This document shows positions 25,053 through 38,585 of a DNA stretch of 64,000 nt, in pieces. How positions within the stretch are numbered: position 1 is the stretch's first letter; each line of letters starts with the position of its first letter. The notes below the pieces were generated by a model. It searched no databases and had not been told where the DNA came from. It saw nothing but the letters and a program-made list of their open reading frames with translations. The stretch covers positions 692 to 64,691 of the forward strand of contig PEYM01000148.1 of NCBI GenBank assembly GCA_002774365.1. The letters are read 5' to 3'. The position numbers and the translations under genes were made by a program. The DNA comes from Candidatus Saganbacteria bacterium CG08_land_8_20_14_0_20_45_16 (GTDB lineage: Bacteria > Margulisbacteria > WOR-1 > O2-12-FULL-45-9).

Positions 25053-25856
25053 TTGATGAAAAAACTATTGATATTTGGGTTGGTCCTGTTTTGTTTCTCC
25101 AAGGTTGCTTTGGCTTCTTATATTACTTTGCAAACTTCTGTCACGACCAAAATTGAGGCTAGCAGCCTTAAGGTTTTGGTGGCAGTGGAGAATAAAGGTG
25201 ACGAATCAGCTTATAATGTTCAGGCAGAAATTAGGGCTTTGGGCACTAAGGTCTTGGCTAAGAGAGCTTCAGAAGTTGCGATTAATGGTCGTTATGAGGC
25301 TTATGAAGAGCTCAATCTTGATCTGGCAAAACCAGGTGAATATCCGCTCGTTGTCGTCATGCACTATGCCGACGCTAACCAGTACCCTTTTTCCGCCTTG
25401 ACCTGCCAAACCTTTAATTATCGAGCGCAATCTGTGCCGGCTGAGCTCTTTGGCAAGCTGACCTCAGATAAATTTTGGGACAAGGGCAGGGTGTTTTTGA
25501 CCTTAAAAAATTTGTCAGAAAGCGATTTGACGCTCAAGGTTTTACTGGTCGGTCCGCAAGAACTTAATTTCCCAGGAGACAAAACGCTTGCTTTGGCTGG
25601 GAAAGGGACGGCCAAGGTTAATTTTGAGGTGGGCAATTTCTCCGCGCTTTCTGGCAGTACCTATCAAATCTTTGCCTTGGCAGAATATGATCAGGCTGGC
25701 CGACATCAGACAATTATTACCCAGGGGACGGTGCGCCTGGTCCAAGAAAGCGTGTTCTTGGGCCTAAAGTACTCTTATTTAGTGGCCTTGCTAATTGGCT
25801 TGGTTTTGGTCTTTATTTTTGTCCAGTTTGGCTTACCGCTCTTAAATAAAAAATAG
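25053..25856 (+). CDS. Secreted protein with two CARDB/DUF11-like Ig-fold repeats and a C-terminal TM anchor
   Basis: Signal peptide. Two segments resembling CARDB (KVLVAVENKGDESAYNVQAEI; RVFLTLKNLSESDLTLKVLL). Hydrophobic C-terminal helix LVALLIGLVLVFIFVQFGL. Confidence 0.4.
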   Translation: MMKKLLIFGLVLFCFSKVALASYITLQTSVTTKIEASSLKVLVAVENKGDESAYNVQAEIRALGTKVLAKRASEVAINGRYEAYEELNLDLAKPGEYPLVVVMHYADANQYPFSALTCQTFNYRAQSVPAELFGKLTSDKFWDKGRVFLTLKNLSESDLTLKVLLVGPQELNFPGDKTLALAGKGTAKVNFEVGNFSALSGSTYQIFALAEYDQAGRHQTIITQGTVRLVQESVFLGLKYSYLVALLIGLVLVFIFVQFGLPLLNKK

Positions 25857-25873
25857 CTTGATTAATAATTAAA

Positions 25874-27922
25874 GTGAAAAATCATACATTAATTGCTAGC
25901 CTAATCTTTGGCCTAATATTTATTTTTTTCTTTAGTTTTTTTGCCCCTGGACTGATTTTTGCTAAGACTTCAACCACAGGTGGAGATACGATCTCTCATT
26001 TCCCCACCGCTGTTTATTTAAAAAATGTTTTGTTGCCCACTGGTAATATTATGGGTTGGGACCAGGGCAATTATGCCGGCTATCCGCTTTTTTATCATTA
26101 TTTTCCTTTGACTTTTATTGTTATGGCTGTGCTTAGTTTTATTATGCCCATTGAGATAGCTTTTAAGATTGGGACAATTTTAGGGACGTTCCTTTTGCCG
26201 GTTTGTACCTACTTTGCCCTGCGCGCCATGAAATATTCTTTTCCTATTCCCTTGCTCAGTGCTTGTTTTACCTTGCCGTTTCTTTTTATGGAAGCAAATT
26301 CAATGTGGGGCGGCAATATCCCAAGCACTTTGGCTGGCGAGTCCTCTTATAGCTTTAGCTTTGCTTTGATGATCTTGTTTTTTGGCACGCTTTATGCTGG
26401 GATTAAAGATCAGAAATGGGTTGTGTCTAATTCTTTGTTGCTATTTGGCATTGGCTTAAGCCATGGCTTTACTTTTGTTTTTATTGGAGTGATTGCCCTC
26501 TTTTTTCTGTTTACTAAAAAAGATTTTGTGCGCAATCTGATCTATCTTTTCAAGGCCTTTAGTCTGGCTGTCTTGCTCTTGGGTTTTTGGTTTATCCCGT
26601 TCTTGGGTAATATTCCGTATGTTATTAGTTATGTTTCTAAGTGGTATGTTGATTCGATCTTCAAAATTATTCCGCCGATTCTAATGCCTTTCTGGGGCTT
26701 GAGTTTTGTGGCTTTATTCCTTAATCTGTTTGACCGGCGGACTGCTTACTTTATTCATGTGGTGGTGGCGAGTTTTATTTTGTATTGGCTAGCGCCAAAT
26801 ATCGGCATGCTTGATATTCGCTTTGTCCCGTTCATCCAGTTTTATCTGACAATTTTTGGGGCAACTGTGATCCTGGTCTTTTTGACTAAAATCAAAAATA
26901 AAGAGCTTTTGCCTTTTATTGTTTTTCTGGCAGTTACTTTGTGGGTGCTGCCTCATGTTACATATATTAAAGGGTGGATCAAATGGAATTACGAGGGCTT
27001 GGAAACTAAGTCCAGCTGGCCCTTGCTCCAAAAAATTCATTATCATTTGTCCGAGACAAAGGTGGGGCGAGTGGTTTACGAACATTCGCCCAAACATAAT
27101 ATCTTTGGCAGTGAACGGATCTTTGAAAACCTGTCTAATTACGCGGGCAGGAACACCTTAGAAGGCTTATATATGCAGTCTTCGATTAGTGCTCCTTTTG
27201 TGTTTTATATCCAGTCAGAGGTGTCAAAGCTTCATTCTGGTCCGTTCCCTCAATATAAATATTCTTATCTTAATTTGCCAGCAGCCCTGCCGCACCTAAA
27301 GCTTTTTAATGTTACTCAGTATATTGTCCGCAGCCCAGAAGCCAAGCAAGCAATTAAGAAAATACCTCAGCTTAAGTTGGAATGGAGCCTTGATGATTAT
27401 GAGATTTACCGGCTGACGAACAATGATGGGCATTATGTCGTTTTGCTCAAGAACGAGCCCGTCCTTTTTCAAACTAATGACTGGAAGCAAGATTTTTACG
27501 CCTGGTTCACGAATTTAGACGACTTGGAGATTCCCTTGGTTTACATTAAACATCCGACCGCTCAAGATCTAAAAAAATTCCCCTTGCGCAGTCATGACCT
27601 AGCGGCTTTGCCTAGGGTGGCGCTTCCTGATCAGCAGCCAGAGATCACAGAAAAGCTGCTCCCCCAGGAAATTGATTTTACCACCAACTTGATCGGTCGG
27701 CCGCATTTGATCAAGGTCTCATATCATCCCAACTGGCAGGTGGTAGGGGCGGACAAGATCTATTTGGTCTCACCTTCGTTTATGCTGGTCTACCCTAAAC
27801 AAGCCCACGTCCGCCTTTATTTTGGCAAAACAATCTACAATTATATTGGTGAAGTTATGAGCATTTTAGGGTTACTAATCCTTTTCTCTTCTGTTATAAT
27901 TAAGCGTAAAGATGCGCGATAA
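25874..27922 (+). CDS. Large polytopic membrane protein, putative GT-C-fold glycosyltransferase (YfhO/GtrC-like)
   Basis: 682 aa. About 12 N-terminal TM helices, a ~300-aa extracytoplasmic domain and a final TM. Directly followed by (and overlapping) a GtrB/CsbB-like GT2 gene, mirroring csbB-yfhO / gtrB-gtrC pairs. Confidence 0.45.
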   Translation: MKNHTLIASLIFGLIFIFFFSFFAPGLIFAKTSTTGGDTISHFPTAVYLKNVLLPTGNIMGWDQGNYAGYPLFYHYFPLTFIVMAVLSFIMPIEIAFKIGTILGTFLLPVCTYFALRAMKYSFPIPLLSACFTLPFLFMEANSMWGGNIPSTLAGESSYSFSFALMILFFGTLYAGIKDQKWVVSNSLLLFGIGLSHGFTFVFIGVIALFFLFTKKDFVRNLIYLFKAFSLAVLLLGFWFIPFLGNIPYVISYVSKWYVDSIFKIIPPILMPFWGLSFVALFLNLFDRRTAYFIHVVVASFILYWLAPNIGMLDIRFVPFIQFYLTIFGATVILVFLTKIKNKELLPFIVFLAVTLWVLPHVTYIKGWIKWNYEGLETKSSWPLLQKIHYHLSETKVGRVVYEHSPKHNIFGSERIFENLSNYAGRNTLEGLYMQSSISAPFVFYIQSEVSKLHSGPFPQYKYSYLNLPAALPHLKLFNVTQYIVRSPEAKQAIKKIPQLKLEWSLDDYEIYRLTNNDGHYVVLLKNEPVLFQTNDWKQDFYAWFTNLDDLEIPLVYIKHPTAQDLKKFPLRSHDLAALPRVALPDQQPEITEKLLPQEIDFTTNLIGRPHLIKVSYHPNWQVVGADKIYLVSPSFMLVYPKQAHVRLYFGKTIYNYIGEVMSILGLLILFSSVIIKRKDAR

Positions 27923-37251: not shown

Positions 37252-37991
37252 ACAAAACGATCGTGGTCATGCCGGCGTACAATGCGGCCAAGACCTTGGC
37301 TAAGACCTTTCAGGACATCCCCAAAGACAAGGTCGCTGAAATTATTTTGGGCGATGATTGCTCAGAGGACCAAACTATCTTGATCGCCCAATCATTGGGG
37401 CTTGAGGTCCTTAAGACCCCGTGCAATCTTGGCTACGGCGGCAACCAAAAAATGCTTTACCAAGAGGCGCTGCGACGCGGGGCCACCATTGTGGTCCTGC
37501 TTCACCCAGATTGGCAATATGACGCTACCAAAATTCCTGAGCTGATCGCACCGATTGCGGCTGGCGAAAAAGATGTTATGTTAGGTTCAAGGATACTTGG
37601 CGGCCGGGCCGGCACGCTAGCTGGCGGCATGCCGCTTTATAAGTACCTGTCCAATCGTTTTCTGACCTTGGTCGAGAATATGACCTTTAACTTCTCTTTG
37701 TCTGAGCTGCATACTGGCTTTCGCGCTTTTAGTGCTCCGGTGCTAAAAAAGGTCAGCTATGAGCTTAATTCCAATGACTTTGTTTTTGATTCTGAGATGT
37801 TAGCCCAGATTGCCGTTCAAAAATTTAGGGTGGGAGAGGTGCCTGTGCCGTGCCGTTATTTTCCAGAAGCTTCAGAAATTAATTTTTGGCGCAGTAGTTG
37901 TTATGGTCTCCAGACCTTGCTGGTCTGTCTGAAGTTCATGTTGCATAAGCTAAAAATAAAAGAGTTGGAGCAATTCATTGCAAAGTGTTAA
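37248..37991 (+). CDS. GT2 glycosyltransferase (dolichyl/polyprenyl-phosphate sugar synthase-like, soluble)
   Basis: 247 aa. GT-A motifs VVMPAYNAAKTL, ILGDDCSED and a DxD-like LHPDWQYD. No TM segments. Confidence 0.8.
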   Translation: MNKTIVVMPAYNAAKTLAKTFQDIPKDKVAEIILGDDCSEDQTILIAQSLGLEVLKTPCNLGYGGNQKMLYQEALRRGATIVVLLHPDWQYDATKIPELIAPIAAGEKDVMLGSRILGGRAGTLAGGMPLYKYLSNRFLTLVENMTFNFSLSELHTGFRAFSAPVLKKVSYELNSNDFVFDSEMLAQIAVQKFRVGEVPVPCRYFPEASEINFWRSSCYGLQTLLVCLKFMLHKLKIKELEQFIAKC

Positions 37992-38003
37992 AATAAAGCG
38001 CAA

Positions 38004-38585
38004 ATGAAGCGAGCAGCCTTTACCTTAATTGAGCTGATCATGGTTGTGGTTTTGATTGGCATTTTGTCAGGGGTAGCGATGATCTCGCTGCGGTCGCAAG
38101 AAACAGTGGCCTTGAGTGCCGCAGCCCAAAAAGTTGTGGTGGACCTTAATTATGCTAGGGGCTCGGCCCTGTCAACGGCATTTTGGTATGGGGTCAGTTT
38201 TGAGGCTGATCCAGCTAATACTTATACTGTTTACTTAGCGAGTAATGAGGTAGTAGTGGCTGACCCGAGCAATTTGGGCAAGCCGTTAGAGGTTAATCTA
38301 GCGGCCCTGTTTAACGGGGTAAGTATTCAATCTGTTACCCTGGCAGGGAGCAATCGAGTGTTTTTTTGTCCTTTAGGAGAGGCTTATGAGGCTAAAGATG
38401 GCAACCAGTTGGCTAATGACGGCGAAATAGTCTTAGCTTATGGTAATCAGACAAAGAGCGTTTTTATTGATCATAATTCTGGGATGATCTCGTTGCAGCC
38501 AGTGGTTGCCGGCACTGGGGAGGGAGAAGGTGAGGGAGCAGGTGAAGGTGGGGGTGGCGGTGGTGGTGGTTGCGGCGCACATTAG
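38004..38585 (+). CDS. Prepilin-type minor pseudopilin, GspH/FimT-like, with Gly/Glu-rich C-terminal tail
   Basis: N-terminal FTLIELIMVVVLIGIL with Glu at +5, and a FimT/GspH-like DLNYAR motif. The last 25 aa are GTGEGEGEGAGEGGGGGGGGCGAH. Confidence 0.7.
   Translation: MKRAAFTLIELIMVVVLIGILSGVAMISLRSQETVALSAAAQKVVVDLNYARGSALSTAFWYGVSFEADPANTYTVYLASNEVVVADPSNLGKPLEVNLAALFNGVSIQSVTLAGSNRVFFCPLGEAYEAKDGNQLANDGEIVLAYGNQTKSVFIDHNSGMISLQPVVAGTGEGEGEGAGEGGGGGGGGCGAH

Follow-up and report, generated by a model that had tools for sequence, protein, structure and literature searches.

The 64,000-nt stretch analysed here (the window) belongs to a contig of Candidatus Saganbacteria bacterium CG08_land_8_20_14_0_20_45_16, as a database match at 100% identity (P0001) shows. 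It carries, between glyS and gpsA, a 13-kb run of glycosylation genes that leads directly into a set of pilus genes. Our study covered the region 25053-38585 together with the pilus genes that extend to 44874. On balance, we favour the view that several separate modules for periplasmic glycosylation of the GtrB/GT-C type are stacked here, which would have been inserted between glyS and gpsA, and that the last gene pair of the stack is a candidate pilin O-glycosylation system. The island is composite: only its last glycosyltransferase family 2 (GT2) enzyme, GT2b, with a variable GT-C partner, stays beside pilins. Module 1 comprises 25053-31414, with lineage-specific add-ons to 34621, and module 2 comprises 35815-37991, perhaps together with a flavoprotein gene at 34628-35839. 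An earlier, sequence-only reading had taken all 13 kb for one pilus-directed island. The conserved junction of GT2b with the pilins upholds part of that proposal, but the notion of a single system does not stand, as module 1 recurs without pilins.

Nine closely packed plus-strand genes occupy 25053-37991 and are followed by a GspH-like pilin gene at 38004-38585, where the sequence-only reading had counted eleven consecutive genes. The gene run that it described is real: within the nine genes and the pilin, neighbours overlap by as much as 25 nt or are separated by at most 17 nt. Across 25053-44874 every gene lies on the plus strand, with junctions from a 25-nt overlap up to a 45-nt gap, and the gpsA backbone picks up again only past the secretin gene, at 44864. 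The stop codon of GT2b and the ATG of the first pilin gene, pilH, are 12 nt apart, as had been stated, which leaves no room for a terminator between them. The strongest promoter-like site, at 24932-24961, lies upstream of the first open reading frame (ORF1), and no intergenic terminator was found in the 20-kb run; the same promoter and terminator scan gave many intragenic consensus matches, and its evidence is weak.

Families were assigned by Pfam and NCBIfam profile searches and transmembrane (TM) segments by a hydropathy scan. The run holds four demonstrable GT-C enzymes (a PTPS_related protein, two DUF2079 proteins and a PMT_2 protein) and one orphan polytopic protein that is probably also a GT-C. 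The earlier count of three is too low because the DUF2079 proteins are themselves GT-C. The other members are two GT2 enzymes, one flavoprotein and one CARDB-like partner protein; the GT-Cs are polytopic, and neither the GT2 enzymes nor the flavoprotein have a signal peptide. Profile searches of all window ORFs of at least 120 amino acids (aa) found no Wzx, Wzy, WaaL, initiating phosphoglycosyltransferase or GtrA domain, in line with the earlier statement on the first four, and no Wzy_C/O-antigen-ligase domain of the PglL/TfpO type. GtrA (PF04138) had no match among the window ORFs, and the interval 25053-38004 has no unoccupied intergenic space. Rfam and tRNA scans of the window found nothing. 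A GtrB-type GT2 with a set of GT-Cs and lectin-type periplasmic domains fits the lipid-phosphate-sugar logic of periplasmic glycosylation that had been proposed.

The GT2b-pilin junction

ORF8 (PMT2a; 35815-37251, plus strand) encodes the 478-aa PMT_2/ArnT-like GT-C of module 2, the candidate pilin-modifying transferase. Its Pfam matches (PMT_2, 57 bits; PMT, 43 bits) bear out its earlier designation as ArnT/PMT-like; it has about 11 TM segments and an ERDEG motif after TM1. ORF9 (GT2b; 37248-37991, plus strand) encodes a 247-aa Dpm1/PpgS/AglJ-like GT2. The earlier label of a soluble GT2 holds as regards the lack of TM helices, but the protein is most like polyprenyl-phosphate sugar synthases. 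It matches the Pfam GT2 profile at 62 bits, its closest PDB structure is the Dol-P-Man synthase of P. furiosus (5mlz, E 2.7e-4), and its NCBIfam matches all lie below cut-off (PpgS, 71 bits against 370; AglJ, 66 against 325; Dol-P-hexose transferase, 49 against 375). The GT2b family is large and very conserved, with 7997 matches at E<1e-10, the top 120 of them at 64-76% identity.

Immediately downstream, pilH (38004-38585, plus strand) encodes a GspH/FimU-like minor pilin or pseudopilin with an N_methyl motif and a TIGR01708 GspH match of 38 bits. Three more minor pilins (131, 153 and 463 aa) are encoded on the plus strand at 38602-40852, the first two with prepilin N-methylation motifs and the 463-aa protein with an N-terminal hydrophobic helix; N_methyl/TIGR02532 matches fall in the genes at 38004, 38602 and 38998. 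At 40898-44874, also on the plus strand, follow a PilM-PilN fusion, a PilO-like protein, a 167-aa protein in the position of PilP, and a secretin (Pfam PilM_2, 119 bits; T2SSM/PilO, weak; Secretin, 147 bits). No assembly ATPase, platform protein, prepilin peptidase or major pilin was found in the 64-kb window; of these, the related clusters L101 and L114 do encode the ATPase, the platform protein and the major pilin.

Across the loci compared, which include those of a metagenome scan anchored on GT2b, this gene lay directly 5' of the minor-pilin quartet in 12 of 13 distinct Margulisbacteria-type loci (the window, L001/2, L004, L008, L010, L033, L113, L114, L115, L116, L117 and L101), the exception being L009. 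The quartet pilH-pil2-pil3-pil4 itself is kept in all pilin-bearing loci. Comparison of genomic context, a check that the sequence-only reading had suggested, thus found conserved linkage to pilins for GT2b and none for module 1. The gene preceding GT2b is variable and encodes PMT_2, DUF2079, a flavoprotein, an NPCBM protein or another GT2. Orthologues of PMT2a occurred, among the fetched flanks, only in loci that also have GT2b and pilins (L001/2, L008 and L033).

The most telling arrangement is that of L101, where the order reads PilB, PilC, major pilin, YfhO GT-C, GT2b, GspH-like pilin, pil2, pil3, pil4 and PilMN. The same order, with insertions, is found in L114, a WOR-1 relative. Identity between these two clusters is so low (24% for PilMN and 32% for YfhO) that the arrangement must have outlasted deep divergence, as well as a change of GT-C family between YfhO and PMT_2. 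Mobile or selfish insertions have not dispersed the GT2b-pilin pair either: both an AbiEii toxin gene with its helix-turn-helix antitoxin gene (L033, 10767-12025) and a 23S_rRNA_IVP gene (L114, 10921-11277) lie precisely at the junction of GT2b with the first minor pilin.

Two further features of the pilin genes were recorded. The minor-pilin quartet is duplicated in tandem in L008 (16817-21543), L114 (11497-16998) and L116 (10746-20735), and a 1716-aa DUF7483/Big_5 adhesin-like protein comes after the second quartet of L116. In the window, pilH ends (38505-38585) in a 26-aa Gly/Glu-rich tail, PVVAGTGEGEGEGAGEGGGGGGGGCGAH, that is missing from nine orthologues, which stop near '...TGRIxxQ'. 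The tail is unique to this genome, which rules it out as a conserved feature; it may be a read-through or low-complexity extension.

Module 1 and its life apart from pilins

The first gene of module 1, ORF1 (25053-25856, plus strand), encodes a 267-aa bitopic protein with an N-terminal signal or TM segment, a CARDB-like Ig-fold periplasmic domain and a C-terminal TM segment. Its description as CARDB-like is backed by a weak Pfam match (17.3 bits, below cut-off). The motifs NxGDE, YxDANxYPFSA and S..Y are invariant across 14 orthologues from Bacteria and Altiarchaeota, and in Geobacteraceae, Planctomycetota and others an ORF1-like protein forms an N-terminal fusion to PTPS_related (hhalign probability 97.8%, E 8.5e-13). 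This fusion and the invariant NxGDE and YxDANxYPFSA motifs argue for ORF1 as a subunit or partner of the PTPS_related enzyme and against its being the substrate. That enzyme is ORF2 (25874-27922, plus strand; 682 aa), a polytopic glycosyltransferase of the GT-C clan with a PTPS_related (PF10131) match of 111 bits, about 11 TM segments and a C-terminal anchor. The sequence-only reading had called it a YfhO-like GT-C; the clan was right, since PF10131 and YfhO (PF09586) both belong to the GT-C clan CL0111 (PMC7801869), but PTPS_related was the only family reported at E<=0.01. ORF2 keeps its synteny with ORF1, ORF3 and ORF4 throughout the Margulisbacteria loci and also in other phyla.

ORF3 (GT2a; 27912-28847, plus strand) encodes a 311-aa GtrB/PgfS/ArnC-like polyprenyl-phosphate sugar synthase, as had been recognised from its sequence. 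It matches Pfam GT2 at 116 bits and, over its full length, NCBIfam PgfS (284 bits) and ArnC (195 bits), under the equivalog cut-offs (500 for PgfS), and its C-terminal TM helices lie at residues 236-286. ORF4 (D2079a; 28841-31414, plus strand) encodes an 857-aa DUF2079 GT-C (177 bits) with periplasmic PA14 and CBM4/16-like lectin domains, of which the Pfam matches (PA14, CBM_4_9) are weak; a look-up of its exact sequence gave no record. ORF5 (D2079b; 31419-32864, plus strand), an accessory of module 1, encodes a second DUF2079 GT-C of 481 aa (147 bits), a paralogue of ORF4 (24% identity, E 5e-17) that has no lectin domains. The polytopic N-terminal module of both proteins has the GT-C fold. 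In the first extracytoplasmic loop, just past TM1, all of 19 orthologues share D69 and nearly all share D74, both candidate catalytic residues. Our literature search found no functional work on DUF2079, PF09852 or PF10131, the clan membership of PTPS_related being all that could be cited.

ORF6 (32861-34621, plus strand), a further accessory, encodes a 586-aa orphan protein that has 11 TM segments and, at its C-terminus, a homologue of the CBM-like domain of ORF4 (BLASTP E 5e-6; hhalign probability 95%). The run thus has two membrane proteins with C-terminal CBM4_9-like domains, ORF4 and ORF6, as had been proposed, and two DUF2079-type proteins, ORF4 and ORF5, where three had been named. ORF6 matched no Pfam family at E<=0.01, and its placement in DUF2079 was rejected, as hhalign against the DUF2079 alignment aligned only the CBM-like domain. 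Profile searches, the other check suggested at the outset, hence confirmed the GT2 enzymes, DUF2079 (ORF4, ORF5) and PMT_2, gave weak CBM matches and left ORF6 without a family. Its membrane domain is probably a divergent GT-C. HMMER found about 8 relatives of this domain among 1.8e9 representatives and a word index found 2 homologues; two relatives weakly match DIE2_ALG10 (E 8.9e-5) and Mannosyl_trans4 (E 0.007). A poor AlphaFold2 model (pLDDT 54, from a three-sequence alignment) gave no significant Foldseek match, and ArnT, STT3 and EmbC alone reached a TM-score of about 0.3. The public collection holds just a 272-aa product, P0195, identical to ORF6 residues 315-586; in the deposited annotation the gene start was probably placed at an internal Met, which leaves out the membrane domain.

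Between the two modules, ORF7 (34628-35839, plus strand) encodes a 403-aa cytoplasmic FAD/NAD-binding flavoprotein of the PRK07233 family with an amine-oxidase/PPO/UGM-like fold. Its recognition as a flavoprotein was secured by NCBIfam NF005560 (426 bits, cut-off 252); Pfam Amino_oxidase scored 85 bits, and sequence matches in the PDB included PPO (E 7e-9) and UGM (E 2.5e-4). In L008 the flavoprotein gene is likewise placed between D2079b and PMT_2. ORF7 is a paralogue of the PRK07208 flavoprotein encoded beside a DPPR-synthase-type UbiA further along the window, and it may modify a sugar or a lipid-linked sugar.

To compare module 1 among genomes, loci were anchored on ORF4 orthologues and the window proteins were mapped onto the fetched loci by phmmer. 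In Margulisbacteria the core of CARDB-like protein, PTPS_related, GtrB-like GT2 and DUF2079 always comes after glyQ-glyS. Five of these loci have module 1 and no pilins (L003, L006, L007, L009 and L119). In L003, L006, L007 and L119 the core leads directly to gpsA-plsY-efp-accB-recJ, sometimes with D2079b and an ORF6 homologue interposed; in L119 the ORF6 homologue stands after D2079b and before gpsA. D2079b also follows D2079a in L008, which has pilins, and in the pilin-free L006 and L119. Pilin-free flanks were also found for about ten cassette loci of other phyla, one of them in an Altiarchaeota metagenome-assembled genome (MAG). The MAGs that carry the cassette belong to Bdellovibrionales, Gammaproteobacteria, Geobacteraceae, Desulfuromonadaceae, Desulfobulbaceae, Desulfobacteraceae, Planctomycetota and Altiarchaeota. 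Because it recurs without pilins both in Margulisbacteria and in other phyla, module 1 is a self-contained GtrA/GtrB-type system with two GT-Cs, independent of pili.

In MAGs of Geobacteraceae, Planctomycetota and Desulfobacterota (L014-L019), the CARDB-like protein, PTPS_related and C-terminal TPRs form one protein of about 1170-1290 aa. A GtrA gene lies inside the cassette in L014, L016 and L017 (Geobacteraceae, Desulfuromonadaceae and a Deltaproteobacteria MAG); that of L014 (PF04138, 80 bits) stands between GT2 and DUF2079, the fusion and GtrA features being at 4851-8357 and 9318-9788. The Altiarchaeota MAG (L020, 9932-16198) has the CARDB-like protein, PTPS_related, GT2 and DUF2079, which implies transfer between the bacterial and archaeal domains.

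As regards the working of module 1, we suppose that ORF3 would act at the cytoplasmic face and charge polyprenyl phosphate with a sugar. Once this had been flipped, PTPS_related, with its CARDB-like partner, and DUF2079 would transfer the sugar to a periplasmic acceptor, the PA14 and CBM lectin domains of DUF2079 probably holding a glycan acceptor. The TPR, PA14 and CBM domains suggest that one enzyme may recognise a protein or primer and the other a glycan. In other phyla the flippase of this module would be GtrA; none is encoded in the window.

Pilin modification and its alternatives

For module 2, GT2b would make a second polyprenyl-phosphate monosaccharide in the cytoplasm, and in the periplasm the PMT_2 GT-C would draw on this donor, most likely for the O-glycosylation of type IV pilins. 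The pair would work like TfpW, PgfS-PgfM1, GtrB-PgtC2 or Ppm1-PMT. Families and folds, the topology pattern and the conserved gene order are observed; the donors, the flipping, the acceptors and the glycosylation of the pilins are all predicted by analogy with established GtrB/GT-C biochemistry.

Several observations weigh against this interpretation. It is gene order alone that suggests the pilins as targets; those of the window are not notably rich in Ser/Thr, the major pilin is absent from the contig, and clear Ser/Thr richness was confined, among the pilins checked, to the major pilin of L101. The window yielded no flippase gene. GT2b falls far under the equivalog cut-offs of PpgS and AglJ, L009 keeps it next to module 1 and has no pilins, and L004, L010, L113 and L115 have no PMT_2 gene beside it. 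Outside Margulisbacteria, moreover, GT2b homologues of 50-57% identity were near pilins in 2 of about 50 loci of at least 4 kb. Their neighbours there encode PMT_2/TPR or DUF2079 GT-Cs, a methyltransferase and a flippase-like membrane protein, the surroundings to be expected if a lipid-phosphate sugar synthase supplies a GT-C, and this marks the family as a generic donor synthase. Finally, most pilin-linked loci come from one phylum, so their number is inflated by shared ancestry.

These points lend themselves to another explanation, which we regard as credible, though less likely than the first, and as the strongest of the alternatives: the modules might have no functional link to pili, all of them decorating envelope glycopolymers or proteins (lipopolysaccharide/O-antigen-like, an S-layer or anchoring polymer, or peptidoglycan), and the adjacency of GT2b and pilins might be synteny inherited in compact, co-directional genomes. 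Homologues in other phyla that lack pilin neighbours, the pilin-free L009 and the concentration of pilin-linked loci in one phylum all agree with it. GT-C genes are, besides, simply abundant in the window, since PMT_2 genes are also scattered among housekeeping genes at 49883-51598 and 54749-56176; the PA14 and CBM domains suggest glycan acceptors, and an SLH-domain protein is encoded near the cluster in L033. Inherited synteny does not, however, account easily for a GT2b-pilH junction that is the sole constant where everything 5' of GT2b varies. Nor does it explain why L101 and L114 have their GT-C and GT2b inside a complete pilus operon, away from module 1, at 24-32% identity and across a swap of the GT-C, or why the toxin-antitoxin pair of L033 and the IVP insertion of L114 left GT2b and the pilins together.

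A pilus link could also exist with a different substrate. It is improbable, in our judgement, that module 2 acts not on the pilins but on a pilus-dependent protein such as the secretin, the alignment proteins or a large displayed or secreted adhesin. The low Ser/Thr content of the window pilins and the adhesin-like protein downstream of the L116 quartets would suit such a target; yet no such adhesin is conserved beside other pilin clusters, and in L101 and L114 the GT-C comes directly after the Ser/Thr-rich major pilin, as do tfpW and tfpO in Pseudomonas. Least probable of all is that the whole 13-kb run is a single pilus- or pseudopilus-directed system. In its favour are the uninterrupted, overlapping plus-strand run of 25053-44874, whose only strong promoter-like site lies 5' of ORF1, and the order glyS, module 1, GT2b, pilins, which many Margulisbacteria loci share. 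Against it, L003, L006, L007, L119 and about ten loci of other phyla have module 1 (with D2079b and ORF6) and no pilins, and the pilus operons of L101 and L114 carry GT-C and GT2b and lack module 1.

Known systems, neighbouring genes and implications

Three-component lipid-phosphate glycosylation and the glycosylation of pilins by a GT-C, exemplified by TfpW, are already established. The suggestion that the window holds a kind of system not yet described is therefore not sustained; its gene set would be a variant. In group IV Pseudomonas aeruginosa, the GT-C TfpW is encoded next to pilA and glycosylates (arabinosylates) the pilin (bioRxiv 10.1101/2020.04.19.049825). The systems studied here likewise have a GT-C in the pilus cluster, where it precedes the minor pilins (the window) or comes straight after the major pilin (L101 and L114), and a presumed polyprenyl-phosphate monosaccharide donor; the window also has a cluster with a DPPR-synthase-type UbiA 2.6 kb past the secretin gene. 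They differ in that their GT-C, a PMT_2 or YfhO enzyme, is likened to TfpW by gene position rather than sequence, and in that a Dpm1-like donor synthase is co-encoded in the operon, whereas TfpW draws on an unlinked decaprenylphosphoryl-arabinose (DPA) pathway. In the window, moreover, the adjacent genes are those of minor pilins and not pilA, and the system is known from genes alone. The cyanobacterial pilin glycosyltransferase Ogt was ruled out as the closest analogue, being a cytoplasmic GT41 enzyme.

GtrABC, CsbB-GtcA-YfhO and ArnC-ArnT are the nearest models for module 1. In these as in module 1, a GtrB-like GT2 with C-terminal TM helices (here ORF3) adjoins polytopic GT-Cs, Wzx, Wzy and WaaL are missing, and in the homologous L014 cassette GtrA stands between GT2 and GT-C. 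Unlike the GtrABC type, module 1 has two GT-Cs (PTPS_related and DUF2079), a dedicated CARDB-like partner and PA14/CBM lectin domains, and no GtrA is encoded in the window. In streptococci, GtrB/PgfS-type GT2 enzymes and YfhO-family GT-Cs put single sugars from undecaprenyl-phosphate sugars on extracytoplasmic Ser/Thr (PMC12041528, PMC5856776), O-glycosylating Ser/Thr-rich protein regions (PMC12041528). The likeness to PgfS-PgfM1 and GtrB-PgtC2 extends to PgfS being the best NCBIfam match of ORF3 and to the YfhO GT-C of L101 and L114; the hosts here are diderm (LptF/G, Lnt and a secretin are encoded in the window), the candidate targets are pilins instead of adhesins or intrinsically disordered regions, and the island has no PgfE-type epimerase. 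The pairing of the TM-less ORF9 with the PMT_2 GT-C ORF8 resembles Ppm1/Dpm1 with PMT and mycobacterial PpgS (Rv3631) with Rv3779, from which it differs in the low PpgS score of ORF9 (71 bits against a cut-off of 370). We know of no pilus-operon context for the Ppm1/PMT and PpgS/Rv3779 systems.

A second glycosylation cluster lies at 47477-52702, between accB and recJ, and encodes UbiA, a PRK07208 flavoprotein, a PMT_2 GT-C and an SDR epimerase-like protein. The UbiA-type decaprenyl-phosphate phosphoribosyltransferase matches NF008977 at 293 bits (cut-off 234) and the flavoprotein PRK07208 at 759 bits (cut-off 418). The cluster is absent from L003, L006 and L007, and L118 has only UbiA and SDR. 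Bacillus variants of the pentofuranose side-chain systems (Kelly et al., as summarised in PMC11194591) are reported to use a UbiA-type transferase, an FAD oxidoreductase, an SDR and a GT-C. The component set of the 47477-52702 cluster matches that of these side-chain systems, and the cluster also resembles the mycobacterial DPA pathway; the window flavoprotein differs in being of the amine-oxidase/PRK07208 type rather than DprE1 (VAO), and no phosphatase or flippase was identified for the cluster in the window. At 54749-56176, between recJ and purD, a lone PMT_2-family GT-C gene is an insertion relative to related genomes.

GC skew is positive in all 2-kb bins but one, the cumulative skew climbs almost monotonically over 1-64000, and all larger ORFs except about eight are on the plus strand, which is consistent with a single leading-strand replichore segment. 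The GC content is 0.41-0.43 over 26-36 kb and about 0.45-0.47 in the flanks. Between glyS and ORF1 lies, in this genome only, a gene for a 619-aa DUF5122 beta-propeller protein (23031-24890); in most related loci examined the CARDB-like gene follows glyS directly, and L001/L002 have two small unassigned ORFs between them.

In conclusion, we put forward tentatively, as somewhat less than an even prospect, that Margulisbacteria and a deeply diverged relative have built into their pilus operons a unit of a dedicated Dpm1-like synthase and an interchangeable GT-C (YfhO or PMT_2) that would add monosaccharides to type IV pilins, and that beside it stands a pan-phylum cassette of CARDB-like/PTPS_related, GtrB and lectin-bearing DUF2079 proteins. 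What would be new is the GT2 and GT-C pair within Margulisbacteria type IV pilus operons, with its exchangeable GT-C family, and the assignment of DUF2079 and PTPS_related, from fold and context, as partners in a widespread cassette. Our literature search found no paper describing such a pilus-operon pair or such a cassette, and nothing relevant on type IV pili of Saganbacteria. If true, the proposal would give a second mechanistic route, after TfpW, for the modification of type IV pili by a GT-C, with the donor synthase encoded within the pilus operon, in an uncultured sister lineage of Cyanobacteria. GT2b upstream of the minor-pilin quartet would then be a simple genomic marker for predicting glycosylated pili in metagenomes. 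For two uncharacterised membrane families, our data offer a working model in which DUF2079 combines a GT-C fold with lectin domains and PTPS_related acts with a CARDB-like partner. In this model the two together make up a compact GtrA/GtrB-dependent cassette, which occurs in many bacterial phyla and in an archaeon and is a tractable target for biochemistry.

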